NCBI GenBank assembly: GCA_046758465.1
Contig: JBHIAG010000002.1
Span: 1 to 55,115, forward strand
Length of the DNA stretch: 55,115 bases
Reading direction: 5' to 3'
From: Terriglobia bacterium
GTDB taxonomy: Bacteria; Acidobacteriota; Terriglobia; Acidiferrales; 2-02-FULL-67-57
The position numbers were made by a program, and so were the translations under genes. Position 1 is the stretch's first letter. Each line of letters opens with the position of its first letter. The notes beneath the pieces were generated by a model that saw only the letters and a program-made list of their open reading frames with translations, searched no databases and was not told the origin of the DNA. This document shows positions 9,090 through 27,838 of the stretch, piece by piece.

Positions 9090-9099
9090 CCCCTTCGTG

Positions 9100-9649: not shown

Positions 9650-9678
9650 TTGACTTGCCTGCGGGTGCGGCCTAAGCT
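9650..9678 (+). promoter_or_regulatory. repeated sigma70-type promoter cassette
   Basis: GCGTTGACT TGCCTGCGGGTGCGGCC TAAGCT. Confidence 0.6.
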
Positions 9679-9711
9679 AATACGTCCGGCCAACATGGAA
9701 GGGAGAGCTCG

Positions 9712-9984
9712 ATGCTCCAGTTACAACGACTTTGTTGGCTGATGCTGGTGTTGGTGCTCTTTCCCGCGCTTGTGGAGGCACGGCAGGCTGCCCTGTCGGA
9801 GGACCCGCGCGTTGCGGGTGGACCTGGAAAGGTTAATTGTGTCGACCCTGGTCGCTCCTCCGAGTGTCAAGCCCGGGAAGCGCCGTCGCCGGCCATGCTC
9901 CTGCGTGGGTTTTTCCCGGCTTGGTACAAGCACTTAGCGCTACTGGGATTCGCTCCGAGTGCGGCAAGTGAGATGCAATGCTGA
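9712..9984 (+). CDS. hypothetical secreted protein
   Basis: 90-aa ORF with a hydrophobic signal-like N-terminus, a GGAAGGGAG SD and a promoter cassette upstream. No family recognised. Confidence 0.4.
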   Translation: MLQLQRLCWLMLVLVLFPALVEARQAALSEDPRVAGGPGKVNCVDPGRSSECQAREAPSPAMLLRGFFPAWYKHLALLGFAPSAASEMQC

Positions 9985-10026
9985 TGCAAGGAATGGTGTG
10001 ACCCGAACAGCCAGGAGGAGGTTGTT

Positions 10027-11385
10027 GTGAACACAGTCTTCGTAGTCGGCGCAGGTCCGGCCGGATTGTTCGCGGCGCAGAAAATCGCACGTGCCGGGCA
10101 TTCGGTGGTTATCTTCAACCAGGACATCAAGCCCGGCGGACTGGCTGAATACGGCATCTATCCGACCAAGGACAAGATGAAGAACGGGCTGCGGAAGCAG
10201 TTCGGAAAGATTCTGGCCATGCCCGAGGTAACTTACTTTGGCCACACGGCTGTCGGTGCGAACCGGGCTTTTTCGATTGCCGAGCTGCGCGAACTGAACC
10301 CGGCGGCGCTGGTGTTTGCGGTGGGCGCGCAGGGAACCAAGAGGCTGGGCCTGCCGGGCGAGGAGGCCGGCGGAGTGTACGCCTCCAAGGATTTCGTGTA
10401 CCACTACAACCAGCTGCCACCTTTCGCCGGGCAGGATTTCTCCACCGGAAAGCGCATCTGCATTATCGGGATGGGCAACGTAATGGTGGACGTAGCGCAC
10501 TGGTTACTGGTGGACGACCCCGAGCGCCAGGCAGAAGAAGTCACTGTGATCGCCCGGCGCGGGCCGTTCGAGGCCAAGTTCGACCAGAAGGAGTTTGCCT
10601 ACATAGAAGAGTTCCTTGACCGCCGTGCGCTGGAGGAAGAGCTACGGCGGGTGAAGGACCGTATAGCCAAGGTTGGGCAGGACATCGCCCAGGTGCCGGA
10701 CGCGAGTTTCCCCGCCCTCGCTAAGCCTTTCCGGGAGCCTCCCAGTCGCTGCCTGCGCTTTCGTTTCCTGACCTCGCCGACAGCCATTCATGCCGATGGT
10801 AGCGGGCGGATCGTGGGTTTGACAGTGACTGAAAACCTGTTGGTGCCGCGCAACGGCGGAACGAAAGCCCAGGCGACCGACCAAACTACAGAGCTCGAAT
10901 TCGACACCATGATTTTCGCTATCGGCGACGTTGCCGACCCCACCCTGGGCCTTCCTTACGAAAAGAACTCCTACGTGACCAACTCCGACACGGCCGATCC
11001 CGAGCGGGCCGGCTACGAGGTCTTCGACCCGCAAAGCGGGAAGCTACTGGACGGAACTTACGTGGTCGGCTGGGCGCGGAAGGCCAGCGAAGGCTTGGTA
11101 GGCGTTGCCCGCCGGGATGGAGAAACTGGCGCGACTCATATTCTGAACTACTTGGAGGGCGCGCCCCAAAAACCTGCTATCTCTCCGGGGGAGATTCGGC
11201 ACCGGCTCGACGGCAAGAACGTAGAGTGCATCACCAAGGGAGACCTGCCATACCTGACGCGAGCAGAGGAAAAGCAGGCGCAGGAGCGGGGCCTGCCTCG
11301 GTTCAAGTTCGGCGACGATACAGCTATGCTGGCCGCCATCAAGGAGGAAAAAACCAAGGGCGGCGTTCCCCGCGCTGCCGCCTGA
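10027..11385 (+). CDS. FAD/NADPH-dependent ferredoxin-NADP reductase-like oxidoreductase (adrenodoxin reductase/FprA type)
   Basis: VFVVGAGPAGLFAAQKI..GGL..YGI.P dinucleotide motif, second GMGNVMVDVA motif, GTG start behind an AGGAGG SD. Confidence 0.75.
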   Translation: MNTVFVVGAGPAGLFAAQKIARAGHSVVIFNQDIKPGGLAEYGIYPTKDKMKNGLRKQFGKILAMPEVTYFGHTAVGANRAFSIAELRELNPAALVFAVGAQGTKRLGLPGEEAGGVYASKDFVYHYNQLPPFAGQDFSTGKRICIIGMGNVMVDVAHWLLVDDPERQAEEVTVIARRGPFEAKFDQKEFAYIEEFLDRRALEEELRRVKDRIAKVGQDIAQVPDASFPALAKPFREPPSRCLRFRFLTSPTAIHADGSGRIVGLTVTENLLVPRNGGTKAQATDQTTELEFDTMIFAIGDVADPTLGLPYEKNSYVTNSDTADPERAGYEVFDPQSGKLLDGTYVVGWARKASEGLVGVARRDGETGATHILNYLEGAPQKPAISPGEIRHRLDGKNVECITKGDLPYLTRAEEKQAQERGLPRFKFGDDTAMLAAIKEEKTKGGVPRAAA

Positions 11386-11490
11386 CTTTCCTCCTGCTGG
11401 ATGCGAAACTGCCCAGCGCAGGGGACACTTGTGTCGGGGGCTGCAACGGTTCTAGCCCTGTAGTTTCTCGTTTATACCCGTTTTGAACAT

Positions 11491-11518
11491 AGGACTACTG
11501 CAATATTACTGCAGTCCT
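11491..11518. promoter_or_regulatory. 28-bp imperfect palindrome just upstream of a promoter cassette
   Basis: AGGACTACTGCAATATTACTGCAGTCCT (11 of 14 positions pair). It ends 17 nt before the -35 at 11536. Confidence 0.35.
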
Positions 11519-11535
11519 TTCGCACCTCCTTCGCG

Positions 11536-11564
11536 TTGACTTGCCTGCGGGGGCAGCTTACTCT
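11536..11564 (+). promoter_or_regulatory. repeated sigma70-type promoter cassette
   Basis: GCGTTGACT TGCCTGCGGGGGCAGCT TACTCT. Confidence 0.6.
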
Positions 11565-11594
11565 GCTTTCCAGAGTTCTCTGCTGAGGGTAGAG

Positions 11595-12311
11595 ATGAGA
11601 ATCACAAGAGTTCTCTCACTGGCTACGTTGACACTCCTTCTCTGTGGCTCCGCTTGTACACAGTTGGGTGAGTTGCAGGTTGAATCCCGCTCGATTGAGC
11701 TGGCAGATGCCGAGTCAGTTGTGGCCGAGATTAGGATGGGAGCCGGAGAGCTGAGGGTATCTGGGGGTGCCGCGCCACTGCTGGAAGCTGACTTCGCCTA
11801 TAACGTTGCCGACTGGAAGCCCGAAGTGGAGTACAGGGTAATGGGCGATCGCGGTCGGCTCACTGTTCGGCAGCCCAGCGTGACAGGGGGCACTTTAGGC
11901 GGTACCCGATATGAGTGGGACCTGCGTCTGAATGACGACGTTCTCATGGAGCTGAGCGTGGAACTAGGTGCTGGCCGTGCTGACCTCATCCTTGGTTCCC
12001 TCTCGCTGACCGATCTTGAAATCAAGACGGGAGCGGGCGATACCATTCTGGACTTGACCGGTGATTGGAAGACCGATTTACGCGCGCGAATCAGGGGTGG
12101 CGTGGGCCGAGCCACCGTACGGCTTCCCCGTGACGTGGGTGTGTGGGTCGATGCCAAGGCCGGAATAGGCGGCATCAATGCCACTGGCCTAAAGAGGGAC
12201 GGCAGCGCCTACGTCAACGATGCCTACGGAGAGTCAGATGTAACGCTCCGGATTGACATCAAAGGGGGTGTGGGGCAGATCAACTTGGAATTGGGTGCAG
12301 CGGTGCTGTAG
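11595..12311 (+). CDS. lipoprotein with toast-rack (DUF2154/LiaF-C-like) beta-repeat domain
   Basis: Lipobox-like ..LLLCGSAC, then repetitive ..GAG.L.V..G.. beta strands (ELGAGRADLILG..IKTGAGDTILDL..GGVGRATVRLP..GGVGQINLEL). Start set downstream of the promoter. Confidence 0.65.
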   Translation: MRITRVLSLATLTLLLCGSACTQLGELQVESRSIELADAESVVAEIRMGAGELRVSGGAAPLLEADFAYNVADWKPEVEYRVMGDRGRLTVRQPSVTGGTLGGTRYEWDLRLNDDVLMELSVELGAGRADLILGSLSLTDLEIKTGAGDTILDLTGDWKTDLRARIRGGVGRATVRLPRDVGVWVDAKAGIGGINATGLKRDGSAYVNDAYGESDVTLRIDIKGGVGQINLELGAAVL

Positions 12312-12388
12312 AGGAAACTCAAAGATTCCAGCGCGGACCCAAGGAACTTACTTTTCGAGCCTTCATTCTTACCTTTTACGACTCTCGC

Positions 12389-12427
12389 TTCCAATCCCTC
12401 CTGGGCCGCATGAACTTCCCCGAGTAG
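12389..12427 (+). repeat. relic ORF-tail module (..FQSLLGRMNFPE-stop) followed by a degenerate promoter part
   Basis: TTCCAATCCCTCCTGGGCCGCATGAACTTCCCCGAGTAG. Confidence 0.55.
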
Positions 12428-12498
12428 GCTGTTCTCCACACTTGCCAAAAGAGTCTTCCCAGCGCACTCTATGTTGAGTTAGGCCTGTGAGATAGGAG

Positions 12499-12843
12499 AT
12501 GCCAGAGGTCAAACAACGCCAAGCTGGCTCGGTCATCGTGCTGGAGCTGAGTGGACGGCTTACCATGGGGGAGGGTTGTGCCTCTTTGGAGCGCAAGCTG
12601 AAGAGCCTAGCCGCAGATGGGCTCCTCTCCTTGCTGCTGGATTGCAGCCAGCTACAAACGATTGATAGTCAGGGTATTGAAGTTCTGTTGGGAGGCCTCC
12701 GGTCACACGAAACACGAGGCGGCAAGCTGAAGCTGTTCAAGGTCTCACCCAGAGTGCGCTAGGTGCTGGAAATCACCCGTTTGCTCCGGCTTTTTGAAGT
12801 GTACGAGGATGAAGAGACTGCGCTAAAGAATTTCGCTTCCTAG
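12499..12843 (+). pseudogene. STAS-domain anti-sigma-factor antagonist interrupted by an in-frame TAG
   Basis: ..VIVLELSGRLTMGEG..LLLDCSQLQTIDSQGIEVLLG..GGKLKLFKVSPRVR-TAG(12760-12762)-VLEITRLLRLFEVYEDEETALKNFAS-stop. The segment after the TAG is in frame and completes the STAS fold. Confidence 0.75.
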
Positions 12844-12850
12844 GTGGGAA

Positions 12851-12893
12851 TTCCTCCAAGACGCTTCTCCGCCGCCTGAACTTCCCGGAGTAG
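12851..12893 (+). repeat. relic ORF-tail module (..LLRRLNFPE-stop), no promoter part
   Basis: TTCCTCCAAGACGCTTCTCCGCCGCCTGAACTTCCCGGAGTAG. Confidence 0.55.
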
Positions 12894-12906
12894 GTACGAC
12901 CCGTGC

Positions 12907-13767
12907 TCACTTCTGCGAGAACCATGTGGCGTAGAGCTCCGCGCGGCGGTCGCGCAGAAACAGACGCCGAGCGTGGGAGCGACGGACCTCGGACAGATCG
13001 AGGTCTGCATATAGGATGTGTTCTTCACCTTGAGGGGCGCGGCCCACAACAGCTCCGTCTGGCGCGCATACGAAGGACTCACCCGCAAAGGTGAGAAGTT
13101 CTTCCTGCCCAACCCGGTTACACAGAGCCACGAAATAACCATTTTGGAACGCGGCAACACGCATCTCGGCCTCGAAGAGTCCCTCGGGCCACTCGCCCAC
13201 AGCGCCGGCTTGCGGCACGACGACGACGTCAGCACCTCCCAGCGCTAGAGCTCGCATGTATTCGGGGTAGTGGCGGTCGTAGCAGATGGCCACGCCAAGC
13301 CGACCGACCTTCGTTTCGTAGACCGGCGTTCCCGTGTCCCCAGGCGTGTAGTAGCCCTGCTCGTGGAAGCAGCCGTAGTCCGTGATGTGGACCATGCGGG
13401 TCTTCCCGAGTAGCGTGCCATCGGCGTCGATAACCGGCGAGCAGCCGTAGGTACGATCGCCATCCCTCTCGAACAGGTTGAGCACCACCACTACCCCAAG
13501 CTCCTTGGCTTTGGCACAGAACGTCTCTGTAGTTAGCCCAGGGACCGGCTCGGCCTTCTTCAACACCTGTTGCTCTGCCCGCCGCTGGGGATAAAAGGGT
13601 TCGAAAGCGAGTTCGGCGTAGCAGCAGAGCTTTGCACCTGCGGCCGCCGCAGTTTCGAGCGTGTGAATGCCACGGTCGATGTTACCCGCTTTGTCGCCTG
13701 TTGCGCGTTGCTGTACGAGTGCAATGCGGATCACACTTGACTCCGTCTCTCGTTTCTCTATGACCAT
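12907..13767 (-). CDS. carbon-nitrogen hydrolase (nitrilase superfamily; N-carbamoyl-amide hydrolase-like)
   Basis: ..IALVQQ..CYAELAF.. (Glu), ..GKTRMVHI.. (Lys), ..LGVAICYDRHYPE.. (Cys). Start re-picked at MVIEKRE (13767). Confidence 0.8.
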   Translation of the reverse strand: MVIEKRETESSVIRIALVQQRATGDKAGNIDRGIHTLETAAAAGAKLCCYAELAFEPFYPQRRAEQQVLKKAEPVPGLTTETFCAKAKELGVVVVLNLFERDGDRTYGCSPVIDADGTLLGKTRMVHITDYGCFHEQGYYTPGDTGTPVYETKVGRLGVAICYDRHYPEYMRALALGGADVVVVPQAGAVGEWPEGLFEAEMRVAAFQNGYFVALCNRVGQEELLTFAGESFVCAPDGAVVGRAPQGEEHILYADLDLSEVRRSHARRLFLRDRRAELYATWFSQK

Positions 13768-13838
13768 GTGCGGGAACGTAGAGTATCCTTCCGTTCGCGG
13801 TCGGTCAATGTCCACCTCCTTGCGCCCTGCGCCTCCGC

Positions 13839-13874
13839 CTGGAGCGCATGCGCCGCATGAACTTCCCGGAATAG
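13839..13874 (+). repeat. relic ORF-tail module (..LERMRRMNFPE-stop), 9 nt upstream of the promoter cassette
   Basis: CTGGAGCGCATGCGCCGCATGAACTTCCCGGAATAG. Confidence 0.55.
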
Positions 13875-13883
13875 CCCACCGCG

Positions 13884-13912
13884 TTGACTTGCCTGTGGGT
13901 GGGGCGTAGGAT
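13884..13912 (+). promoter_or_regulatory. repeated sigma70-type promoter cassette
   Basis: GCGTTGACT TGCCTGTGGGTGGGGCG TAGGATG. An AAAGGAGGG SD precedes the ATG at 13940. Confidence 0.65.
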
Positions 13913-13939
13913 GCTTCACCCAAAGGAGGGAATCTTTCC

Positions 13940-15385
13940 ATGAATTGTATTTGCGTTATCTGTCTGTCGGTTCTGCTAACCGCCGTGCCGGTTTTCTCGC
14001 AGGCCACTTCACTCGCGGAGGATCGGGAAGTAGCTTCATCCCTTCGCCTGCTGGAAGCTTGGATAGAAACCCAGATGGCCTACCGCGGATTGCCGGGACT
14101 CTCGATTGGAATTGTGCGGGACCAGGAGCTGATATGGTGTCGCGGGTTCGGTTTTGCTGACCTCGAGAAAAGGATCCCCGCCACACCGCAGACCAACTAT
14201 CGCATCGCCTCTATCTCGAAGCTTTTCACCGCCACCGCTATCCTCCAGCTCCGCGACGCGGGCAAGCTCCAGCTCGATGACCCCGTCGCCAAGCATCTGC
14301 CCTAGTTCAAGATTCGCAACAACCACCCTGACGCTCCAGTCATTACCATCCGCCATCTGCTGACCCACACGTCGGGTCTGCCGCGCGAGTCAGCTTTCCC
14401 TTACTGGATGGATGCCAACTTTCCCACCCGCGAGGAGATCATCGAGAGTCTCCCCAAACAGCAAACCATTTACGCGCCCGAGACTCAGTTGAAGTATTCG
14501 AACCTGGCATTAGCGTTAGCCGGGGAGATTGTTCAAGCCGTTTCCGGTCAGCACTATGCCGGCTACATTCAGCAGCACATCCTTGGCCCACTCGATATGG
14601 CAAACACCAGTGCCCTGGTACGCGAAGAACACCGCAAGCGCTTGGCAACTCCTTACGGTCGTCGACTGCCCGACATGTCCCGGCCAGACCGGCCTTTCAT
14701 GGATACCAAGGCCATCACCCCGGCAGCCGGCCTCTCATCCAATGTCAAAGACCTCGCTCGTTTTGCTTCACTGCAATTCCGCGACGGTCCGGCTGGCGGC
14801 AAGCAGATACTCAAGGGTAGTACCTTGCGTGAAATGCACCGTGTCCACTGGCTCGCCCCCGGGTGGGAGATGGGCTGGGGGCTCGGATTCTCGGTGTGGA
14901 AGCGTGGAAGCCAGACGCTGTTTGGGCACGGTGGCTCTCTGGCAGGCTACCGAACTATCCTGCAAATGGATGGGAAAGAAAAGATTGCCGTCATAGTCAT
15001 GACCAACGCTGGCGACGGGAACCCTGGCCGGTATGCCAGCAAGGCGTGGGAATGGATAGCCCCGGCTCTAAAGCACGCCGCTGCCTCCTCCAAGGAATTG
15101 CCTCAACCCGATCCAGCGTGGCAACGTTACGTCGGCCGCTACCGCAATCCCTGGGGGGATTCACACGTCCTGATCTATAAGGGTGAATTGGTGATCATCA
15201 ATCCCGCCGCAGGGGATCCGCTGACTTCCATGATGAAATTGATACCCGTCGCCGAGCACACCTTTCGCATCGAGGGTAAGGTCCTCTATCAGGACCTCGG
15301 TGAGCTCGTAATCTTCGAACTCGGACCCGACGGCAAAGTCGTCCGCATGAGGGAGGGTGCCAACTACAGCGATCCCATTCCCTGA
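13940..15385 (+). pseudogene. serine hydrolase of the beta-lactamase/PBP4 (class C-like) family interrupted by an in-frame TAG
   Basis: Signal peptide and SxxK motif (ASISKLFTA). Then ..VAKHLP-TAG(14303-14305)-FKIRNNHPDAPVITIRHLLTHTSGLP.. continues in the same frame into the 325-aa ORF starting at 14408. Confidence 0.85.
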
Positions 15386-16392: not shown

Positions 16393-18075
16393 ATGAAATG
16401 CACACGCATCTTGGGACTCGCAGTCGTCTTGCTTCTTCCGACTCAGGCTCTGGCACAGACCGCCGACATCATCCTCATCAACGGAAATGTCATTACCGTG
16501 GATGAACGAAAGCCGCGGGCGGAGGCCATTGCAATCCAGGGCGAGCGAATCCTGGCCGCCGGTTCTAATGAAGAAATCAAGCATCTGCGCGAGAGCCGGA
16601 CGCATGTGGTTGATCTTCAGGGGAAGACAGTTATTCCGGGCATGGTGGACGGGCATCTGCACTTTGTGGGACTCGGATCTGATCGCGGTGCGTCGCTTGA
16701 TCTGAGCGAGGCGAGAAGTGAGGCGGATGTGGCGGCGCAGGTCCGGCGTGCGCTTGGACGCGTAAAGCGGGGGGAGTGGATCACCGGCGGGGATTGGCAT
16801 ACGGGGAACTGGGATCGAGAACAGTGGCCGACCAAGGGGTCGCTGGACCAAGCGGCTCCAAACAATCCGGTGTTGCTGAGGGGGATGCACGGACACGCCA
16901 GTTGGGTCAACTCGAAGGCGCTCGAAATGGCAGGCATCACCAAGAACACGCCAGACCCGCCCGGCGGCAAGATCCTGCGCGACGACAAAACGGGTGAGGC
17001 GAGTGGCATTCTCATCGAGAATGCGCAGGCCCTGGTTCGCAACAAGATCCCGGAGACCAGCCGCGAGCCCCTGAAAGAGCGCATCAAGAAAAGCATCCGG
17101 CTGGCGCTGTCGTACGGCTTTGTCGGCGCGCATGATATGGGAACATCGCTCCAGACCGTTGAGGCTTACAAGGAACTGATTGATGTCGGCGAGTTTCCGT
17201 TCCGCATCAACGCTATTCCTCGTGTCCGGAATTCTGGGGCCCTGCTAGACGAAATCCTGAAGCGCGGGCCTCTCGTCGGCTATGGCAATCATCGCCTGAC
17301 GATGCGCGGCGTGAAGCTCTCGATCGACGGGGCGCTAGGATCACGAGGTGCAGCGATGATGCTGCCCTATGAGGACGAGCCGCACAACTTGGGCGTGATC
17401 CGCGTCCCGTACGAACAGCTCTACTTCATCTTGGAAAAATCGCTGAAGGCAGGGTTCAACGTGGCCATTCACGCCATCGGGGACCGCGGCAACCAGATGG
17501 CGCTGGACGCCGTTGAGCAGGCGCTGCTCGGCGTGCCGGTTCAGGACCATCGAATCCGGGTCGAGCATGCGCAGGTCGTGCAGCTGGAAGACCTGCCGCG
17601 TTTTGCCAGGCTCGGGATCCTGGCGTCGGTGCAGTGGATTCATTGCACGCTCGACATGCCCTGGGCCGAAAAGCGGATCGGCTCGGAGCGTATCCGGGGC
17701 GCGTACGCGTGGAGGACACTCCTGAACCACGGCGCGCGACTGGTTGGTGGCTCGGACGAAGGAGCGAAAACGTTCAGTCCATTCATGGGGATTTTCGCCG
17801 CCGTCACGCGCCAAGACGAGAAAGGTTGGCCCCAAGGAGGATGGTATCCCGACCAGAAGCTCACTCGTTATGAGGCGCTCAAGAGCTACACGCTCGATGC
17901 GGCCTATGCCAGCTTTGAAGAGGATGTTCTTGGCTCGATTACGCCGGGCAAGTATGCCGACGTCGTCGTCCTTTCCAAAGACATCATGACGGTCCCTGCT
18001 CCGGAGATTCTTCAAACCCAAGTCCTGATGACGATGGTTGGCGGCAAGATCGTCTTCGAGCGGAAGGAGCAATAA
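16393..18075 (+). CDS. secreted metal-dependent amidohydrolase (Amidohydro_3-like)
   Basis: Signal peptide, ..IPGMVDGHLHF.. metal-binding HxH motif, ..VAIHAIGD.., ..RVEHAQ.., ~560 aa. Confidence 0.85.
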   Translation: MKCTRILGLAVVLLLPTQALAQTADIILINGNVITVDERKPRAEAIAIQGERILAAGSNEEIKHLRESRTHVVDLQGKTVIPGMVDGHLHFVGLGSDRGASLDLSEARSEADVAAQVRRALGRVKRGEWITGGDWHTGNWDREQWPTKGSLDQAAPNNPVLLRGMHGHASWVNSKALEMAGITKNTPDPPGGKILRDDKTGEASGILIENAQALVRNKIPETSREPLKERIKKSIRLALSYGFVGAHDMGTSLQTVEAYKELIDVGEFPFRINAIPRVRNSGALLDEILKRGPLVGYGNHRLTMRGVKLSIDGALGSRGAAMMLPYEDEPHNLGVIRVPYEQLYFILEKSLKAGFNVAIHAIGDRGNQMALDAVEQALLGVPVQDHRIRVEHAQVVQLEDLPRFARLGILASVQWIHCTLDMPWAEKRIGSERIRGAYAWRTLLNHGARLVGGSDEGAKTFSPFMGIFAAVTRQDEKGWPQGGWYPDQKLTRYEALKSYTLDAAYASFEEDVLGSITPGKYADVVVLSKDIMTVPAPEILQTQVLMTMVGGKIVFERKEQ

Positions 18076-18155: not shown

Positions 18156-18184
18156 TTGACACCCCCGAAGCGCAGGATTAGGGT
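18156..18184 (+). promoter_or_regulatory. sigma70-type promoter related to the cassette
   Basis: CGTTGACA CCCCCGAAGCGCAGGAT TAGGGT. An AAGGGAGG SD precedes the ATG at 18228. Confidence 0.5.
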
Positions 18185-18227
18185 AGCAACCTCGAAATTC
18201 CCCACACTTCAGAAAGGGAGGACAACC

Positions 18228-18689
18228 ATGCGTCGAATTTTGCTGGTGTTTGCAAGTGTTGCAGTTTTGAGTCTGACGCTCATTGCAGCGCCGTCCCAGA
18301 TAGCCGATGAAGTTATCGCTATAACGAAAGCACAGTGGGCGGCAGAGATGCAGAACGATATTGCAGCGGCGATGAAGAACGTGGCTGACGATTACACAGA
18401 GTTCAATCCCGACTATCCCACTAGGCTCGATGGCAAGGCATTGAATGTGCGGCTTGCCGAAGCACAGGCAAGTGGCAGTGGGCGTCTGGTGGCAGCGGAG
18501 ATGGCCAACGCAAAGGTGCAGGTATATGACAATGTGGCCATCCTCACCTACAACTTCATCGGTTCCACAAGAGATAAAGACGGCAACATCGAAGCTGTAC
18601 GTGCAAAGTCAACCCGTGTGTACGTGAAAAAAGGCGGGCAGTGGTGGCTTGTACACGCCAACTTTGCTCCGGTTGACGTAGAGAATTAG
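18228..18689 (+). CDS. secreted NTF2-like (DUF4440/SnoaL-like) protein
   Basis: Signal peptide plus ..DDYTEFNP..VQVYDNVAILTY..KSTRVYVKKGGQWWLVHANFAP.., an NTF2-fold pattern. Confidence 0.6.
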   Translation: MRRILLVFASVAVLSLTLIAAPSQIADEVIAITKAQWAAEMQNDIAAAMKNVADDYTEFNPDYPTRLDGKALNVRLAEAQASGSGRLVAAEMANAKVQVYDNVAILTYNFIGSTRDKDGNIEAVRAKSTRVYVKKGGQWWLVHANFAPVDVEN

Positions 18690-18965: not shown

Positions 18966-19181
18966 ATGGGTAGCCATTGGAAACAATTCGAAGGCGCTCT
19001 GAATTCCGCTGCCAAGAATATCGGCAAGGAGCCGCGTTTCCAGGTTATCCCCGACCAGCGCAACACTCTGTATGAAATTCGCTACGGAAATAAGTGGCAG
19101 TCTGTAGACCTGTCGGAAGCTGAGCAGTTTCTTAGCGATCCGTCCAGGCTTGCAGAATTCGTGAACCAGTTTCTTGGTTAA
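18966..19181 (+). CDS. hypothetical protein
   Basis: 71-aa ORF with a GGGAGGAAGG SD in an AT-richer patch, convergent with the orphan operon. Confidence 0.45.
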   Translation: MGSHWKQFEGALNSAAKNIGKEPRFQVIPDQRNTLYEIRYGNKWQSVDLSEAEQFLSDPSRLAEFVNQFLG

Positions 19182-19254: not shown

Positions 19255-19767
19255 CTAAATTTTCCCCGTCAAGCCTGGCTGCCAATCTTTCAGCATCCCG
19301 CGCTGCCGCAGGAGTTTGGTGTATGCGTCCGGGTCTTTTTCCGCCAGTTCGGCCAAGTCAGCAAGCTCCCGTTCTGGCTCTTTCTTCTCGGGCGGTTTTT
19401 CTGCCCCTTGGGGCGGCTGCTCTTCCGTCTTGCCTAGAGCGAGCTTGCCTTTGTCGCGCAATTCGCAGAAGGCCGCCTTAAGGTTTTGAGGATTGACCTG
19501 CCAGCCACGCTCCGCCAGGTACTCGCCGATAGTCCTAGCGTTTTTCAAGTCGTCCTCACGCGACACTGCGCGCAGTTCCGGGTGTGCCCGCGCCAAGCCA
19601 GTTGCACAGGCGCTTTCGAAGCTCCAAGCCGCCATGCTTTCGGAAAACTGAAACCGTTGTTTGATGCTGCCCAAGTTGTCCTCGAAAATCTCCTCCAACA
19701 CCGTCTCAAGCGCGCCAAGCGGGTTGCGGTTGAACTCCTCTAAGAAAGCGTCCTTGTTCTGAGCCAC
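19255..19767 (-). CDS. hypothetical protein (last gene of the orphan operon)
   Basis: 170-aa ORF with an acidic helical N-half and a Lys/Glu/Pro-rich tail. It is tightly packed behind the large ORF. No family recognised. Confidence 0.5.
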   Translation of the reverse strand: MAQNKDAFLEEFNRNPLGALETVLEEIFEDNLGSIKQRFQFSESMAAWSFESACATGLARAHPELRAVSREDDLKNARTIGEYLAERGWQVNPQNLKAAFCELRDKGKLALGKTEEQPPQGAEKPPEKKEPERELADLAELAEKDPDAYTKLLRQRGMLKDWQPGLTGKI

Positions 19768-19776
19768 GATGTTCTC

Positions 19777-22772
19777 CTAGTCTTCCGGCCCCACAATCTT
19801 CACGCCCTCAGCGCGTAGCATGACCTTGACGATTTGGGTGATCTTGGCCCGCTGGCTTTGGTACAGCTTGCGGAGAACCTTGCGGCCTTTGGGCGACTTG
19901 ACCGCTGAGGGCATTTTTCTCATCAACCCTCGTGCCAGTTGGCCGTGCAGCCGGCCCCAGGCGCGCTCGAACTTTTCCTGAGTTTCTGGCGTCGTACCAC
20001 CCGCGACTCGAATCTGCGGAGCGCGCACTCGCTCAATACCAGCCGCACGCAAGAACTCTTCTTCGGGGGAAAGCTCTGCTGAAAGCACGCGGGAGCCGAC
20101 TGCGGCAGGCGCGGGAATGTCCGTACCCGAGATGAAGCGGCGCGGCTCCTTCGGCTTACCCGTGAACGGATCAATGCGCACCTCTCCCGTCTTAGAGAGG
20201 AACGGAATGTCACCGAAGCCACTCGCCCGCTCCTCGGGCGAAAGTAACTGTTCAAACACACCGAGCACGGTGCGCTGGGGAAAATAGCTGGAGATGAACT
20301 CCTCGAATCGCTTCCGCAAACTCCGCGCCGAGAGCCGTCCGTCTAGGTGGTCTGTCACCGCGCCCCATAGTTTTCCCACCAGTCCGGGCGACGACAAGAA
20401 AGTGACACTTGAATTCACAAGTTCCTTCCGCGCCTTCTCGCTATCCCCCCGTAACAGGGCTGCGAAAAACAGACCCTCGACCAAGAAAAGAATGCCCCCG
20501 AGCCTCTTACGACGCACCACTTTGCCGTCTAGGTCTTTAAACTGGTACTCGAAGCGGTCAAAGTCCACCTCGTCATAGATGGTTTCGTTGACAAAGTGGA
20601 CAAAGCCTGCGCCTTCCAAGTTCCGCACGGCGAACGCCACGGCATCATCAGCGGTGGCCCTGCCAGCCACAACCTTGCGGTAGAAACTCGGCGCGGCGGG
20701 TGTGAACTCAGCAAGAAAGCGCAACCATTGAAGCCGAATTTCGCAAAAGGTGACAAAAGCAAAATCGTAAAAGGGTGTCCGGTCAAACGCTCGATAGAAG
20801 CTGGCAGGGGCAGGGTGAATGATGCTTTCTGCCCTTCCTTCAATGCTTGTGTTACCACGTTCGGGTCTTTGAGCAATTCCGCCGCCCGCCGCCGCACAAA
20901 GTTTTGCCGGGCAACTCCGTGCAGGCCGCGACTTACTGCTTCCCGATGCGCTTGCGCCAGAATGGTTGATTTGAACGCGAAAGCTCGCGCCGTGCCATCT
21001 ACGAGCGTCTTCAACTTCAGCCCCGTGAAGGCGGCAATATCGGCACGCTCGCCGAAGAATGGTTTGAAGCGCAGCGAGAGGGCGGGGTCGGTTCCTAGTA
21101 CACGCTCCAACTCTTCTTTAGGGAATGCCCGCCAGTAGCGGATAGCATCAAAGGTTCCCTGCACACGCTTTCCAGGCTGGCCGGTGCGGACGAAATCGAG
21201 CACGTCGCTAACAATATCGCGCTGGCCCTTCTCCGCCAGCGTGCCGATGTCGCTGGGTAAGTCGGCGAGAAACGAAAACCAGGGGAAAATCGCACGACGC
21301 CAAAAATCAATCCCGAAGATGCGAGCGGCGCGGCCAAGGTTCCTGCTTTTGAGTGCTTCGACTCCTTCGCGGAATAGAGTCTTTGCTGGCCCAGATTCCA
21401 GCGCAGGCAACCCTTCAAGGCTGACGTTTGCGCGCTTCATCAGGTTGACTAACGTATCAACGGCGGCTCGCGCTTCCGCCCGCGCCTGGGCACTCACAGG
21501 CTCTTGAAAAGCGCGGCCAGTGAGTCCGAAAGTGCGGGCGAAGCGTACCCGCTGACGACTGGCAAGACTCATAAGCGAAACCAGTGCTTGTGCCTGCTCG
21601 ACCGTCGCAAGGTTCTCGGCCTTGCCGATTGTATTGGTGGCAAATTCCTTGATTTGCTCGCTGAGGATGACTGTGGCCTTGTTCAGCGTGCGGACCCGCT
21701 GCGGGGAAACGGTGAGCGACGTGCGGCGAGCAACCTGCTCCTCGGCCAACTGGCGGGCGCGCTCGCCCGCGATTCCGCGCAGTTGCCGTTCAAGAATGTC
21801 GGTCTCAACCTCGCGCCCTAGTTGGCGCAGAGGCACCTTGGCCGTCGCTGCGACCGTTCCGGTTTCCGCAATGGCCGGGGCTTGCTCCAAAGTGATTCGC
21901 CCAATGTCATCTAGCTCGTTGATGACGGCACGGACGGATTCTCCGAGCTGGCTTCCCTCCTGTTGCAGCGCATCTTTAATCGGCTTCGCCCGCAAGATTG
22001 CCTGCAATTCCCGGCGTGCTGTGGCCGCCAAAAGCTCGTCGCCGGGTTCAACTCCTTTCATGCGCGTGGTGAGCCGAGTCCACGCGTTTGCGATAGCCTC
22101 GGGTACACCGCTCATCCTAAGAGCTGCGACACCACCAGGGAAAAGCGCGGAAATTCCCGCTAGCGTGCCCGCTTCGCGCAAGCGTTCGGTCGGCTGGCCA
22201 GCTACTTCTCTGCGCGGAACCACCGCGCCGAACTTGGCCCCGACCGCACCGGATCGAATTGTTTCCTCAACCAGCCGTGGGAGTGAGATGCCACGCTCGG
22301 CTAGTGCGCCAGCTAAACGACTGCCAACGGTTTTTTCAAAGACCTTCTTCCCAGCAGCGCGCGCCACCGGACTCGCCACGCCGCCGACAGGTATTCCCAT
22401 CGCAAGCAAGTCGAGGCTGGCGGCTTTCAGCGCCTCTTCCTCCTCGGGAGTATGTTTGGGAATGCCAAAGCGCCTGCCAGTGTGCCGCTCCACGTAAAGT
22501 TTTTCATGCTCGTTGGGTTCTTCCCCTGGCCCGAGCCTGCGGGCCATCGGGGGCCACCCAAAAGCAATTTTCGTCGCCTTGAGTTGACGCCGGGGGATGT
22601 CGAGGATGTCACGGACAACATCTACAACCGCTTCTCCAACCGCCCCAGGAATTGCGCCGGCGACAGACATCTCCCGCATTTCGACCTCGGGCGGTGGTGG
22701 AGGGGGCGGGACCGCGAGTTCGTCACGGATGCGACGCCCGGCGCGTTCGATGGCAGCTTGAAGGTCGCCCAT
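19777..22772 (-). CDS. large (~1000-aa) hypothetical protein whose reading frame switches by -1 near 20769-20775
   Basis: The 747-aa ORF (20529-22772) looks protein-like only up to ..PLPASIERLTGHPF and then becomes compositional junk. The -1 frame reads ..PFYDFAFVTFCEIRLQWLRFLAEF.. into the 315-aa ORF (19777-20724). No family recognised. Confidence 0.55.
20769..20775 (-). other. CCCUUUU slippery heptamer at the frame switch of the large ORF
   Basis: rc(20769-20775)=C CCT TTT in the upstream (zero) frame (caC CCT TTT acg). A -1 slip gives CCC TTT TAC.., exactly the downstream frame. Confidence 0.45.
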
Positions 22773-22784
22773 TGCTATGGATTC

Positions 22785-23009
22785 CTATCTGCTTAGAGAA
22801 AAATCAATAAGCTTCTCAAGATTGGTGTTGAGTCTGTCGGTCTTCATGGCGCGGAGAATCCGCCGAAGGTTTTTCTTCACGGCTGGGTCTGTTGTGGCAT
22901 CCCTGCGTGCAAGCAGAGTGGCTTGTTTTTTGTCGCCACCACCTTGCACCCAGTATGCTCCGGCCAACGCGCTGATCTCATCCTGCCTCACTGGCTGAAG
23001 GTTACTCAT
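22785..23009 (-). CDS. hypothetical 74-aa protein, paralogous to the C-terminus of the upstream gene
   Basis: QDEISALAGAYWVQGGGDKKQATLLARRDATTDPAVKKNLRRILRAMKTDRLNTNLEKLIDF aligns with QGEVNALAGAYLVQAGNDVRQAMQLALKEARTDPHVRRNLPLILRAVKAGKLDTALEDLLRF of the 286-aa protein. Confidence 0.55.
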   Translation of the reverse strand: MSNLQPVRQDEISALAGAYWVQGGGDKKQATLLARRDATTDPAVKKNLRRILRAMKTDRLNTNLEKLIDFSLSR

Positions 23010-23012
23010 GTG

Positions 23013-23873
23013 TCACTCCTGATTTTGGTCTTGCCTGCCTGCTTCGAGAAATCGGAGCAGGTCTTCCAAAGCAGTGTCAAGTTTGCCAGCCTTGACAGCA
23101 CGAAGAATCAGCGGAAGATTTCTCCGCACGTGTGGGTCTGTTCTGGCCTCTTTGAGTGCGAGCTGCATCGCCTGGCGTACATCGTTGCCAGCTTGAACTA
23201 GGTATGCGCCGGCCAGCGCATTGACCTCACCCTGCCGCCCTGCCTGAGCCGCAGCGCGCCTTTCGGCGGGCGATAGCGGCTCAAAGTTCGAAATGCGCTT
23301 GATCTCCCCGCCAGTCGCCCTGTCGAGGAAAACCAAGTCACGCCCGCTCATGCGGGTGAAATATTTTTGTTCATCGCCCGCGCGGAAGAAATCTAAAACC
23401 TCCCGCGCCTCGTCAGTCCGCCCCTGCTGGAAAAGTTTGGCTGCCAAGCCCTGAAATGACGTGGGCTGTTTTGGCGGTTTCGGGCGTCCAAGCAGTCTCG
23501 TCCGCTCTTCCTCCGCAGCCACTTCCCGCTCGCGCAAACCGAACGCGCGTTCCTCGCTCCGTCGCTGGGCCTCTTGCTGACGGCGAATCAATTGCTGCTG
23601 TTGGACGGCACCGAAGCCACGCGCAAAGCCCGCTGCCACGCCACCTTCAGGGCCAGAAAGTGAGCCGGCGATGGCTGTGGGCAGATTAGTCAAAAAAGCG
23701 TGCATGAAAGTGGGCCGCGTCTGAAGCTCAACTTGCGGCACCATGACGGGCATGGTGCCGAGTTCACCATCCGCACCGCCAAGAGGAATCTCCCCGACTT
23801 GCTGTACGCCGACCTGCTTATAGCCTGTTGGAACCGGGCTGAAGCTGAATTCGCGTTTGAGTCCTTCTCCCAT
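23013..23873 (-). CDS. hypothetical protein with coiled-coil centre and the duplicated C-terminal domain
   Basis: Start re-picked at the ATG at 23873, 5 nt after a GGAGAGGGAG SD. Gln/Arg/Glu-rich middle. No family recognised. Confidence 0.55.
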   Translation of the reverse strand: MGEGLKREFSFSPVPTGYKQVGVQQVGEIPLGGADGELGTMPVMVPQVELQTRPTFMHAFLTNLPTAIAGSLSGPEGGVAAGFARGFGAVQQQQLIRRQQEAQRRSEERAFGLREREVAAEEERTRLLGRPKPPKQPTSFQGLAAKLFQQGRTDEAREVLDFFRAGDEQKYFTRMSGRDLVFLDRATGGEIKRISNFEPLSPAERRAAAQAGRQGEVNALAGAYLVQAGNDVRQAMQLALKEARTDPHVRRNLPLILRAVKAGKLDTALEDLLRFLEAGRQDQNQE

Positions 23874-23875
23874 GT

Positions 23876-24157
23876 CTACTCCCTCTCCTTGCAAGATATC
23901 GGTGCTGGCCTGGTCTCAACTGGCGCGCCGCCGCTGAGAGGTGGGCACGGGAATTTTTGAAATAGATACGCTTCGGCTTCACCCAGCAGTTCAGCCAGCT
24001 TTGCGCGCTCCCACTGGCTAGCCTCGGCTTGGCCGTGGACGATCTGGCTTAGACGGCTGGACGAGATGCCCGCTGCCGCCGCGATGCGCGTTTGCTTGTA
24101 CCCATTGCGCCAGAGCGCACGGTGTAGGTTTTCGAGCACTGCCCTCCCCTCCTTCAT
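23876..24157 (-). CDS. small helix-turn-helix DNA-binding protein (XRE/Cro-like)
   Basis: ..YKQTRIAAAAGISSSRLSQIVHGQ.. HTH. Start set at the ATG at 24157, because the longer ORF would include the intrinsic terminator at 24181-24208. Confidence 0.6.
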   Translation of the reverse strand: MKEGRAVLENLHRALWRNGYKQTRIAAAAGISSSRLSQIVHGQAEASQWERAKLAELLGEAEAYLFQKFPCPPLSGGAPVETRPAPISCKERE

Positions 24158-24180
24158 GGAATTTCCTTGCAGGCCACGGT

Positions 24181-24208
24181 AAAAAAAAGCCCCGCCCGAA
24201 GACGGGGC
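24181..24208 (-). terminator. rho-independent terminator
   Basis: Minus strand: GCCCCGTC-TTCG-GGCGGGGC (8-bp stem including one G-U) followed by TTTTTTTT, 52 nt after the stop of the 24260-25330 gene. Confidence 0.8.
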
Positions 24209-24259
24209 CTTCTCTCGAATCTGTAGCACTGGGATGCTACTTGGCCTACTTACTCTACA

Positions 24260-25330
24260 TCACCCCTTTCGCAATTTCGTACGCTGGCTCTTCAAAAAGC
24301 TGCTAATCCATTCTGGCTCAGGCAGATAAGCAGCCCGGCCAAGCGTCCGCTCGCCCAGGAGGATGACCAGTTCATACTCAAGGGTGTCAGTAATCCATGC
24401 TTTTGAAGCCAAGGTAATCTTCTGCGTAGGGTTGAAAACCTCAAGTGCTGGCTCCAACCAGTAGCATTGTTTCTTCCGCCCATCCAAATACTGAAGAATC
24501 TTCTGGTTCAGCTTGGAGATGTTGGACGGGGATACTTTGGCGCGGCGGGCAATCTTGCGAGAAATCCCTGGGGTGTCCTCGCCGCGCATCGCAGCCCGCA
24601 CAGAAGCGCGAGCAACCCGCTGCTGCTCTGCTGTGGGCAATCCCTCGATCCCTTCAAGCAAACCTTCTGCATCCGGCGTGGCCGCGTACCCCTCGGGAAT
24701 CTTCGTGTCAACAAGTACCTCGTCAGCCGCCACAACCCTGCCGGGCACCGGCTCGCCAGCTTCATCCTTTTCGTAGTCCTCAAGGAGATGAACTTCCCGG
24801 CTCGCCCGCTCCAATTCGAGCTTCTTCCGCTTCCAGCGGAGCCTGCGCAGATTGCTCCGCAGATATTCAGAGGGCACCTGATGATGCTTGATGAAGTCGT
24901 AGCCTTCGTACAAATCCGCGAAGTCCTCAAAGGTTTCGGGGTTAGCTGAGTTCGGGCCTGCAATTTCGCTGCCGTGCTCTTCCCAGTAAGCGTTCCGCTC
25001 CCGAAAGCTGCGATGCTTGGAGGCGAGAAAGTCTGTGTCGGCAGCCTTGAGATTCTGGGGGCCGAGGACAGTAATCAGGGCAAAGGCTTGCAGAACGGCA
25101 AGGGCAGCCACAGCAGCTTGTGGCATTGGTTTCTTACGAGCCGCTGCCAGTGCACGCTTGACGCTCGGGTTGCGCTGTTGGTGTTCTTCTACCGTGAGTG
25201 CAAAAGTCCAAGCAAAATGTGCCAGCCTTGGATTACGCTTGAAATCTTGGAAAACTTTCTCGCGCTCGCTCTTGAACACCCCAGAGGCGAGCTTGATGAG
25301 CAGGGTGGCAGTCTTGCGGGCTGAGGCCAT
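24260..25330 (-). CDS. hypothetical protein with a C-terminal sigma-70 region-4-like HTH
   Basis: 356 aa from MASARK. ..LPTAEQQRVARASVRAAMRGEDTPGISRKIARRAKVSPSNISKLNQKILQYL.. resembles a region-4/LuxR-type HTH. The upstream 93 codons of the track ORF are Arg/Pro junk overlapping the integrase relic. Confidence 0.5.
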   Translation of the reverse strand: MASARKTATLLIKLASGVFKSEREKVFQDFKRNPRLAHFAWTFALTVEEHQQRNPSVKRALAAARKKPMPQAAVAALAVLQAFALITVLGPQNLKAADTDFLASKHRSFRERNAYWEEHGSEIAGPNSANPETFEDFADLYEGYDFIKHHQVPSEYLRSNLRRLRWKRKKLELERASREVHLLEDYEKDEAGEPVPGRVVAADEVLVDTKIPEGYAATPDAEGLLEGIEGLPTAEQQRVARASVRAAMRGEDTPGISRKIARRAKVSPSNISKLNQKILQYLDGRKKQCYWLEPALEVFNPTQKITLASKAWITDTLEYELVILLGERTLGRAAYLPEPEWISSFLKSQRTKLRKG

Positions 25331-25380
25331 GCAGCCCTCCCAGTTCACAGATTTTCGGGGAGTTCCTTCAGGTGGGGTAA

Positions 25381-25797
25381 CCACCTTGCGGAATCCCCCT
25401 AAAGGGCTTCGGCCCGGAAGCCGTGGCAGCACTTCAGGAACACCGGGGGCGTTTGGGTGGCAGTCCGCAGCCCGACGCCTTGGTGTTTCCCAACAAGAAG
25501 GGCGGCTCGCTTGACGCCCACAACTTGCTCTGGCGCGTTCTCTACTTAGCTTGCGACGGGGCTGGTGTACCACGTGTCTCATGGCACGCGCTGCGCCATA
25601 CCCACGCAACCCTGCTAAACGTGCAGGGCGAGTCGGTCAGAACGATCCAGGCACAGCTTCGCCACTCGTCAGCCCGCGTTGCTTTGGAAACGTACACGCA
25701 GGTCGTTCCTGAGCAGCAGCGCAGCGCGGTGGAGAGGCTGGAACGCCTGGTATTTGGACCCAAATTCAGGAGATTGAGGGTCGGAAGGCTCCGCTAA
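25381..25797 (+). pseudogene. tyrosine recombinase (phage-type integrase), C-terminal relic only
   Basis: ..EAVAALQEHRGRLGG..LVFPNKKGGSLDAHNL..VSWHALRHTHATLLNVQGESVRTIQAQLRHSSARVALETYTQV.. has the HxxR, H and Tyr boxes. The frame is closed by TAA at 25378-25380, so the N-terminal core-binding domain and first catalytic Arg are missing. Confidence 0.8.
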
Positions 25798-25821: not shown

Positions 25822-25898
25822 TGGCGGGGCCGACGGGACTCGAACCCGCGACCTCCTGCGTGACAGGCAGGCGTTCTAACCAACTGAACTACAGCCCC
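25822..25898 (-). tRNA. tRNA-Asp (anticodon GUC), CCA encoded
   Basis: rc: GGGGCTG TA GTTCAGTTGGTTAGAAC G CCTGC CTGTCAC GCAGG AGGTC GCGGG TTCGAGT CCCGT CGGCCCC G CCA. The 3' 46 nt (25822-25867) are the proximal direct repeat. Confidence 0.95.
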
Positions 25899-25908: not shown

Positions 25909-25983
25909 TGGTGGGCGATGTCCGATTCGAACGGACGACCTTCCCGGTGTAAACGGGATGCTCTACCGCTGAGCTAACCGCCC
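25909..25983 (-). tRNA. tRNA-Val (anticodon UAC), CCA encoded
   Basis: rc: GGGCGGT TA GCTCAGCGGTAGAGC A TCCCG TTTACAC CGGGA AGGTC GTCCG TTCGAAT CGGAC ATCGCCC A CCA. Confidence 0.95.
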
Positions 25984-26026: not shown

Positions 26027-26300
26027 ATTGCTGTACTCGTCCACATGATTGGTGACACTTTCCGGAAAGGAACGCACCCTGGGCATCTTGCAAGGCCTTG
26101 AGAAATCGGGACGGTCAGGAGGGGGGTATCAAGAAGGAAGACAGGCACTTAGAGAAGAAGAAACGGCAGTCCAGCTAAGCATCAAGAGTAGGCGTCAGAA
26201 CTGCCCCAGGCTGCGGGGATTGGCCTTCTTGAGTGTCACCCATCATTCTGAACGAGTACAATTGCCGCCTGCCCACATACAGGCCCGGAACAGCCTTGTC

Positions 26301-26975
26301 CTAACGATTTACCTCTTCGCGTGTGATCTTCTTGAACCGGTGCGCCAGACGCCATTGTCGGCGCAAACCTGCCTCCTCAAATCGCCGCCGCTCGGTCGGC
26401 GTTGCGCAAATCAGCGGCCGAACCGCCTTGGGTTGCCCCTGCGCATCAATCGCCACGAACGTGACATAGGCCGAACTCGTGTGCTGCCGACGACCAGTCA
26501 GCACGTTCTCCGCAAACACCTTCACTCCCACCTCCATCGATGTCCGAAACACCCGGTTCACCGACGACTTCAATACGATCAACTCTCCCACCTTGATGGG
26601 CGTGCGGAAATCGACGTAATCCACCGATGCAGTGACAACGTGGCTGTTGCTGTGCCGGTGCGCCGCGATAGCCGCAGCAATATCCACCAAATGCATCACC
26701 CGCCCGCCCAGGATGTTCCCCAGCGGGTTGGCATCGTTCGGCAACACCACCTCCACCATCTCTGCCTGCGACTCTCGCACCGGCTTGCCCTGCTTACCCC
26801 GAGTCCCGCTAGCCTGCCACGGCGGGCTTGCGGGATCGAGGGGAGCTGCGTCGAAGGGTTTCTTCTCGGCCAGCTCACGCCTTGCCTCCCGTCGAGGCTG
26901 CCAGGCCGGAGGTTTTGCGGGTGGAGTTCTGCGGCGAGGACGAGAACGTCCCTTCCGTGCTGGTTTGCGTCGCAT
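26301..26975 (-). CDS. acyl-CoA thioesterase (hotdog fold, YciA-like) with an Arg/Pro-rich N-terminal extension
   Basis: ..VVLPNDANPLGNILGGRVMHLVDIAAAIAA..ASVDYVDFRTPIKVGELI... The true start is uncertain. Confidence 0.75.
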   Translation of the reverse strand: MRRKPARKGRSRPRRRTPPAKPPAWQPRREARRELAEKKPFDAAPLDPASPPWQASGTRGKQGKPVRESQAEMVEVVLPNDANPLGNILGGRVMHLVDIAAAIAAHRHSNSHVVTASVDYVDFRTPIKVGELIVLKSSVNRVFRTSMEVGVKVFAENVLTGRRQHTSSAYVTFVAIDAQGQPKAVRPLICATPTERRRFEEAGLRRQWRLAHRFKKITREEVNR

Positions 26976-27013
26976 AAGCTCAGCTCGTTCGGCTGGTGCT
27001 GCTTGTGTGCTCC

Positions 27014-27838
27014 CTAGTTCGAGCCCGGCAGCGGCGCTTCGGGCGATTCAAATACCTCCGCCCGCACCCTCTCAAGTGCCCGCAACACCGGGAACCAAAT
27101 CCGCATGCTCCCGTCATCGCGCACTTTGTCGCTCGCCAGCCACACCCCGCCCACCTGCTTCCAGCCGCGCCAATCCCACGCGGTCGCCGCCTCCAGCCGC
27201 GGCTCTCCTCTGTCTCTGTAGCCTTCTAGAAAGTAGGCCCAGCGGTCAATGCGGCGGGTTTCGGGGTGAATGAAAACCCAGTAGTGGTCGCCCGGTGTCA
27301 ATCCCACCTGGTCGAACCAAACGTGTACCACATCGTAATTTATGCTCTTCAGTTCTCGCCTGCCGGCGTAGCCCAGGTGCACGCCTGGGTCTTTCAGCTT
27401 CATGGGCTGGACGAGCCAGTAGGTGTCGTTGATGTACCGCCCGTAGGCGAACTGGAGTGCTTTCTGCAACTCGTCACCTTCGAGCTTCTTCCCATCCACC
27501 CAGGCGTTGCCTGCTCGCGTCTGCACGTTGCAGAGCGTCAGGAACGGCTTGCCTTCGCGTGTCGTGCCCTCCACGCGGTAACGGCCGTCGTAGCGGTCCC
27601 AGAGATGCCGAACCGCAGCCACCCGCTGGCCCCCCCGCTCGACCACCCAATCAAACCGCAGGTAGCGGACTCGCGCCCAGGCCTCTGCGCCGCCCAGCGC
27701 CTGCTGCATCGCTTCCACGAGCTCAATGGCCTTCGCATCCGAGCCGGCTGGGTCGAACGCTTTTTCGTCCGCCAGGCTCGGTGCCACCAGCAACAACGCA
27801 AGCAGGATACTGTCCCAGACTCGCATGTTCCGTTTCAT
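27014..27838 (-). CDS. secreted hypothetical protein
   Basis: Start re-picked at MKRNMRVWDSILLALLLVAPSLA (signal peptide). The upstream 134 codons of the track ORF are antisense to the TPR gene. No family recognised. Confidence 0.55.
   Translation of the reverse strand: MKRNMRVWDSILLALLLVAPSLADEKAFDPAGSDAKAIELVEAMQQALGGAEAWARVRYLRFDWVVERGGQRVAAVRHLWDRYDGRYRVEGTTREGKPFLTLCNVQTRAGNAWVDGKKLEGDELQKALQFAYGRYINDTYWLVQPMKLKDPGVHLGYAGRRELKSINYDVVHVWFDQVGLTPGDHYWVFIHPETRRIDRWAYFLEGYRDRGEPRLEAATAWDWRGWKQVGGVWLASDKVRDDGSMRIWFPVLRALERVRAEVFESPEAPLPGSN

Follow-up and report, generated by a model that had tools for sequence, protein, structure and literature searches.

Cryptic prophage remnants at tRNA genes show a duplicated attachment site (att), a damaged integrase and few late genes left. 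Among the late genes of phages, those of the polyvalent proteins lie beside virion genes and encode domains of the SNF2, Sbno, DdrB-ParB, RelA-SpoT and RadC types, and for their products an entry by injection alongside the DNA is predicted (Iyer et al. 2017, PMC5512222). The genes of the ejection proteins are arranged in a small operon and encode mostly helical proteins of 431-1337 aa with 7-20% identity, which are usually recognised by size together with synteny (PMC8954989). Here we compare with these systems a block of genes from a Terriglobia bacterium represented by a metagenome-assembled genome (MAG; GCA_046758465.1, contig JBHIAG010000002.1, positions 1-55,115 of the forward strand; this whole stretch of 55,115 nucleotides is called the window). 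The block, at 19255-25797, is probably what remains, after decay, of a temperate tailed prophage, probably a short-tailed one, lodged in the 3' end of a tRNA-Asp gene. Its largest gene, E, most likely encodes a very diverged member of the internal-virion (gp16-position) and polyvalent-carrier proteins of phages, and the block itself is most likely a diverged example of a known element type and no new kind of mobile element. The placement of E follows from remote homology, the genomic context of its relatives and the comparison of folds.

Six genes in seven open reading frames (ORFs), named A to F, occupy positions 19255-25330, every one on the minus strand. An initial annotation of the sequence had already given this gene order and these positions, the tightly packed run from B to F and the location of the module beside an integrase relic and a tRNA gene, and the ORF map agrees with it in all these points. 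The gaps or overlaps from B to F are of at most 12 nt, and the adjacent genes are those of a truncated tyrosine integrase (25420-25797), tRNA-Asp and tRNA-Val. Its count of seven genes is corrected here to six, as E is split over two frames, and the AT-richer patches that it pointed to are marginal, with 58.7% GC in the module vs 60.5% in the window and a somewhat lower GC content at third codon positions (GC3). The same annotation found no phage hallmark in the set. At the level of ordinary profiles this stands: in Pfam, PHROGs, PADLOC and NCBIfam, genes A, C, D, E and F gave zero matches and B alone matched something, and no capsid, portal, terminase, tail, lysis or replication gene was detected in the A-F block with Pfam, PHROGs and NCBIfam. 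It does not stand under remote homology, the context of the relatives and the fold comparison of E. The silence of the profile libraries on E is explained by the extreme divergence of ejection proteins, and a C-then-E operon that lacks family matches fits the published pattern of ejection-protein genes (PMC8954989).

Gene E (19777-22772, minus) encodes a protein of around 1000 aa, read in two frames, 20529-22772 and 19777-20724. When a HMMER profile of E was searched against 1.84e9 cluster representatives, 122 relatives were found, 107 of them at E<=1e-10. All of them have profile positions ~554-970 in common, in such a way that a C-terminal domain of ~420 residues is shared by proteins of 900-3600 aa. 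In the long relatives (1.6-3.6 kaa) this domain is preceded by SNF2/ResIII or by AAA_34 plus Helicase_C_4 (Sbno), and other N-terminal domains are ddrB-ParB/ParB_N, RelA_SpoT, RadC(-JAB) and GGDEF; one relative, P0062, combines GGDEF, SNF2 and Helicase_C. The long relatives have the architecture of phage polyvalent proteins, with SNF2, Sbno, DdrB-ParB, RelA/SpoT and RadC domains fused to the common C-terminal domain (PMC5512222). E differs from them in having no recognisable effector domain, as neither of its two parts matched Pfam, so that E itself is not a polyvalent protein and corresponds to the bare carrier form. Beyond the N-terminal effectors, the common domain had no Pfam match, LPD families included, in 23 long relatives at E<=1e-3, and none of 50 E-family members matched PHROGs. 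With the family member P0037, tblastn matched nothing among the phages of INPHARED or the plasmids of PLSDB, single-protein searches of viral contigs with P0009 and P0011 gave nothing, and neither did a search of viral and metagenome contigs with the close-family alignment of E.

Relatives of E were located on at least six phage contigs of IMG/VR, of 19-56 kb (L009/G419, L010/G420, L011/G421, L029, L030 and L031). Gene neighbourhoods were annotated on three of them, G419, G420 and G421, and the neighbours include virion structural, tail spike and tail-fibre assembly genes, endolysins, integrases, RecE and SbcD. G420, which has terminal repeats, further encodes DnaB, an O-like initiator, RusA and a terminase large subunit, the last one identified through PHROGs. 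The phages that carry the E relatives on these contigs are temperate and tailed, and the genomes in which the distant relatives of E reside are those of full-size temperate phages and not small elements. The Pfam models Terminase_6N and T7 head-tail connector matched none of these three uncultivated virus genomes (UViGs), a result that is uninformative, since the connector control matched nowhere. G420 corresponds to IMGVR_UViG_3300010391_000059, a temperate phage genome of 44.9 kb with terminal repeats that is apparently complete. Its E-family protein has 1896 aa, and the start of the gene is overlapped by a 296-aa gene immediately upstream.

The fold of the family was studied through predicted models. 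An AlphaFold2 model of P0005, a homologue with 56% identity to E, reached a predicted local distance difference test (pLDDT) value of 71, with residues 280-980 confident, and consists largely of helices, apart from a small beta region. For the C-terminal domain alone, a model (P0016, from an alignment of 81 sequences) reached a pLDDT of 89 and a predicted template modelling score (pTM) of 0.79. Searched against BFVD, whose entries are themselves predicted models with automatically annotated names, the full-length model gave 51 and the domain model 40 matches at E<=1e-3, with a top probability of 1.0, and the domain model matched with query template modelling scores (TMq) of 0.49-0.60. Among these matches are proteins named internal virion protein from the Synechococcus phages S-CBP3 (I3ULX4), S-RIP1 (M4NUX3) and S-CBP2 (A0A096VL37) and from the Pelagibacter phage Eyrgjafa (A0A7S5YA86), on which the ~420-aa domain superposes with TMq 0.49-0.59 and a Foldseek probability of 1.0; further matches are proteins of uncultured Caudovirales annotated as ART-PolyVal, MuF-C or LPD. 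By contrast, Foldseek against the PDB and the wide VIA-align comparison gave no meaningful match for either model, T7 core proteins included, and a sequence profile search of the PDB returned helical noise only. Like E, the gp16-position proteins are large (~800-1200 aa) and mostly alpha-helical, and in both cases the gene follows a smaller, abutting or overlapping one, within virion-gene blocks in the case of the E relatives. The differences are that no sequence similarity is detectable (PHROGs and the P0037 search), and that the copy of E in the window is broken, lacks flanking tail or capsid genes and belongs to an uncultured acidobacterial host.

Five proteins are close homologues of E, with 53-56% identity and 958-1019 aa. 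All of them are encoded in a single frame, and two of the five come from short Acidobacteria MAG contigs, L001 and L002. No homologue was found in any of 400 other Acidobacteria genomes sampled. Immediately upstream in the same run, gene C (23013-23873, minus) encodes a charged, helical protein of 286 aa with no predicted transmembrane helices. Homology to C was detectable in L001 and L002 alone: in L002 a C homologue of 30% identity (C') lies immediately 5' of the E homologue (E') and overlaps its start, and L001 contains a partial copy. In L002 and in the phage contigs L009, L010, L011 and L029, the position of C is taken by a gene of 260-325 aa, or 260-317 aa in the phage contigs, that adjoins the start of the E-family gene or overlaps it, and hhalign detected no homology between the C family and the upstream genes of the phage contigs (probability 0.1%). 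From its position, we infer that C is a small internal-virion, ejection or assembly partner of E.

In terms of size and helicity, E behaves as an ejection protein, as its ~1000 aa lie within the published range, taken as about 600-1340 aa for the gp16-position class, and the P0005 model is mostly helical. Placement in a virion module was seen in the distant relatives on phage contigs, and no structural gene is recognisable in the window, L001 or L002. The pair C-E resembles the T7 gp14-gp15-gp16 operon in being a small operon of helical proteins of rising size and extreme divergence, and E, like the T7 ejectosome, has hydrophobic segments inside a large protein. It differs from that system in the lack of a PDB match to the T7 core proteins and of a lytic transglycosylase domain in E, in the absence of predicted transmembrane helices in C, unlike gp14, and in that the operon starts here with a helix-turn-helix (HTH) gene. 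The link of E to T7 gp15 and gp16 themselves is putative.

The chromosomal setting also speaks of a mobile element. The tRNA-Asp (GUC) gene was located by ARAGORN at 25822-25898 on the minus strand, and its 3' 46 nt (25822-25867) constitute the proximal att repeat. A direct copy of this part, identical in 46 of 46 positions by blastn, is present at 963-1008 as the distal repeat (a second match listing gives 963-1011, with 98%). The repeats enclose an island of 24.8 kb, of which A-F take the 6 kb next to the integrase gene (int). The integrase relic (25420-25797, plus) retains just the C-terminal half of the catalytic domain, matching PF00589 (8.7e-9) at profile positions 91-169 and the phrog_1 integrase with 1e-21; in a genome-level search it covers Pfam positions 75-169 only, within a 138-aa open frame. 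The N-terminal two thirds are gone, and with them the N-terminal domain and the beginning of the catalytic one. The mobile-element origin proposed in the initial annotation is borne out, and it is strengthened by the island bounded by the 46-bp repeats and by the absence of E from the 400 Acidobacteria genomes, two observations that support foreignness. A functional temperate prophage would share the tRNA-derived direct repeats, here perfect over 46 bp, but not the truncated integrase nor the lack of any PHROG structural match in A-F. With cryptic prophage remnants the block shares the att duplication at a tRNA gene, a damaged int, the small number of late genes left and one large virion protein as its main survivor; it differs from them in that ~18 kb of metabolic genes lie within the same att interval, which makes the island composite and not a clean scar.

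The following history would account for the block. In the ancestral phage, E would have been the large ejection protein in the position of T7 gp16, packed in the capsid and expelled ahead of the DNA, helping to build a conduit across the envelope, with C as its partner in a small operon and D as a copy, made locally, of C's C-terminal domain. In other phages, N-terminal enzymes are joined to this ~420-residue C-terminal chassis of E, and those fusions are the polyvalent proteins. B, with an XRE HTH, and A, with a possible sigma-like HTH, would be leftover regulators, and A, B and F may derive from the same phage. Internal deletions presumably took the head, tail, packaging, lysis and replication genes together with the 5' two thirds of int, and a later 1-nt deletion would have broken E, in such a way that the element would no longer be able to excise, replicate or form particles. 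The initial annotation had preferred an undescribed type, satellite-like or otherwise unclassified. This proposal is improbable, because sensitive searches place E in the internal virion, ejection and polyvalent class of tailed-phage virion proteins and because its relatives lie in structural blocks of temperate phages; assignment to tailed-phage structural families, which the annotation itself had named as the outcome that would count against it, is what was found for E, the largest and only widely conserved protein of the set.

Several observations weigh against a prophage remnant. An XRE gene at the head of a structural-type operon is unusual, the ~18 kb of metabolic genes that separate F from the distal att repeat are not predicted by a simple remnant, and A, B, D and F have no demonstrated link to a phage. 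In addition, the flanks of L001 and L002 gave no PHROG or Pfam match, the phage context is shown only for distant relatives, and the break in the frame of E could be an error of the MAG assembly.

Two kinds of alternative stay alive because L001 and L002 keep C'-E' intact between unrelated, unrecognisable flanks. Over the 3' end of C', all of E' and 106 bp downstream, the two contigs (105-3442 in L001, 1605-4945 in L002) are 90% identical in DNA, and outside this common stretch they are unrelated and of lower GC; both E' copies are intact, with 993 aa. One could then imagine C-E as a compact, horizontally moving cassette, made of a partner and a bare chassis, with a function for the host or the element, and the ~420-residue domain as an undescribed universal carrier that links gp16-position and polyvalent proteins, a reading that we regard as unlikely. 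A more restricted version, in which a phage-derived pair has been domesticated or moves freely for the use of the host, for example in superinfection exclusion or an envelope function, and the window holds a dying copy, would agree with the sharp limits of the conserved stretch, the intact copies and the neighbours that match no phage family. However, mosaic phage genomes yield the same pattern, the copy in the window is broken, and the few close homologues (five or six among 5.8e9 proteins), with none in the 400 genomes, argue against a retained host function, so that this version is improbable.

We give a similarly low chance to the idea that the block still functions as the core of a small integrative element of an undescribed kind, whose proteins would resemble ejection proteins through parasitism of a helper phage. 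Its genes do lie beside int and a tRNA gene and inside att repeats, A and F are ORFans, the C-E pair is intact in the two other MAG contigs with different flanks, and the surroundings of the close homologues, on contigs that span just 5-6 kb, revealed no gene for a capsid, terminase or portal. However, with an integrase that has lost its N-terminal two thirds and a frameshifted E this copy cannot work, the block lacks genes for replication, a relaxase or packaging redirection, conservation with the close homologues is limited to C and E and does not reach A, B, D or F, and the distant relatives of E belong to full-size phages. Compared with phage satellites such as phage-inducible chromosomal islands (PICI), P4-like elements and PICI-like elements (PLE), which hold an integrase, a replication module of their own (primase, helicase or rep) and helper-hijacking genes within about 7-18 kb, the block differs in its truncated integrase and in the lack of any replication or packaging family in A-F.

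It is improbable that E is intact in vivo, either by programmed -1 frameshifting or because the break is a sequencing error. A slippery heptamer, CCCTTTT (C CCU UUU), does exist in the right phase at the reverse complement of 20769-20775, the downstream frame stays open as far as 19777 with homology over its whole length, and indel errors are possible in MAG assemblies. However, the upstream frame is homologous through ...TILLLSPFAKF, where the homologues read ...FILFISPFGRF, and so keeps homology for 13 codons past the heptamer, where the -1 frame is unrelated; homology in the downstream frame begins at ...LQWLRFLAEF. Reading the DNA against the homologues places the switch at TTC GGC TT CAA, about 20727-20735, as a 1-nt deletion, and no X XXY YYZ site is present there. 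A programmed -1 frameshift at CCCTTTT was rejected, since slippage there would substitute other residues for a conserved segment, and since the five single-frame homologues need no shift.

An integrative and conjugative element (ICE), an integrative and mobilizable element (IME) or a satellite was rejected, as the integrase is broken and no relaxase, coupling protein or type IV secretion system (T4SS) was found in A-F or the scanned island genes with Pfam and NCBIfam, nor any packaging-redirection, capsid-redirection or replication family in A-F with Pfam, PHROGs and NCBIfam; a defence system was rejected too, as PADLOC models gave just weak generic HTH matches to B and nothing more in A-F.

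With the prophage remnant as the preferred explanation, what looked like a new mobile element in this genome gives way to a remnant in a composite tRNA-Asp island. Ejection and polyvalent-carrier proteins that are invisible to Pfam and PHROGs could be recognised here by combining profile searches, the domains of long relatives and predicted viral folds. The ~420-residue C-terminal domain, common to about 120 cluster representatives that include giant effector-carrying phage proteins, has neither a Pfam or PHROG model nor a matching solved structure, and with a family model for it, prophages of uncultured phyla such as Acidobacteria could be annotated better.

The remaining genes of the block are less informative. 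Gene A (24260-25330, minus; 356 aa) forms its own transcription unit and is an ORFan, with a self match alone among the 5.8e9 proteins, and the genomes to which L001 and L002 belong gave no match to it. Hydropathy predicts one hydrophobic segment, at residues 68-90. Near its C-terminus a sigma-70 region-4-like HTH is possible, a lead from the ESM language model, whose features give A a value of 0.93 to sigma-70-family clusters with 154 shared features, below the level of family membership; the sigma-region-4 HTH of the initial annotation could thus be kept as a lead and not confirmed. On the other hand, the strong terminator that it placed after A was verified, at about 24181-24216 on the minus strand, as an intrinsic terminator made of a -25 kcal/mol hairpin and a U8 tract (z -2.8; as stable in 0 of 200 shuffles), which a generic terminator scan overlooked. 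Gene B (23876-24157, minus; 93 aa), which heads the B-F operon, encodes an XRE/Cro-type HTH regulator, as the annotation had read it, matching Pfam HTH_3 with 6.3e-5 and 23.4 bits (cut-off 23) and PHROG repressor/regulator families with 7e-6 at best.

Gene D (22785-23009, minus; 74 aa) is, as also recognised from the start, a paralogue of the C-terminus of C, with 46% identity (E 1e-20). It is absent from L002 and represents a duplication of C's C-terminal domain that is specific to this lineage. Gene F (19255-19767, minus; 170 aa), the last one of the operon, is an ORFan with a self match alone in the protein search, and it is not present in L001, L002 or the genomes holding them. Convergent on F, a 71-aa ORF on the plus strand (18966-19181) has a strong Shine-Dalgarno sequence (GGGAGGAAGG) and matched nothing in the family libraries.

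In the rest of the island (~18 kb), the ten largest ORFs in 1089-14007, plus those at 16393-18075 and 18156-18689 (the last one DUF4440), were scanned, and those scanned are metabolic genes or genes of unknown function, with no phage gene among them. The cargo comprises methyltransferases, MetE-like, PEMT, DHDPS, FAA hydrolase, SDR and oxidoreductase genes, together with LiaF-like, CN-hydrolase, amidohydrolase-like and DUF4440 ORFs, and it matches relatives gene by gene, with no syntenic block. The tRNA-Asp gene, its chromosomal neighbour tRNA-Val (UAC; 25909-25983, minus, ARAGORN) and the right flank are conserved in relatives. Downstream of tRNA-Asp the DNA differs in every relative examined, that of G401 and G405 being unrelated to anything in the window, and for this reason there is no empty-site control. 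Nothing stated here depends on G406, an unpublished genome.

Three further repeats were noticed in the window. At 55070-55090, 25 bp short of the end of the contig, 20 of 21 bases match the T-arm region of tRNA-Asp, and this may be a tRNA gene truncated by that end. To the right of tRNA-Val, a segment of ~230 bp (26032-26261) at the start of ORF 26049-27017 recurs elsewhere in the MAG with 94% identity, on two contigs (C50:2990-3222 and C35:16464-16695), and has copies with about 70% identity in relatives. Finally, a segment of 50-75 bp at ~26771-26846 recurs with 79-90% identity on six further contigs of this genome.

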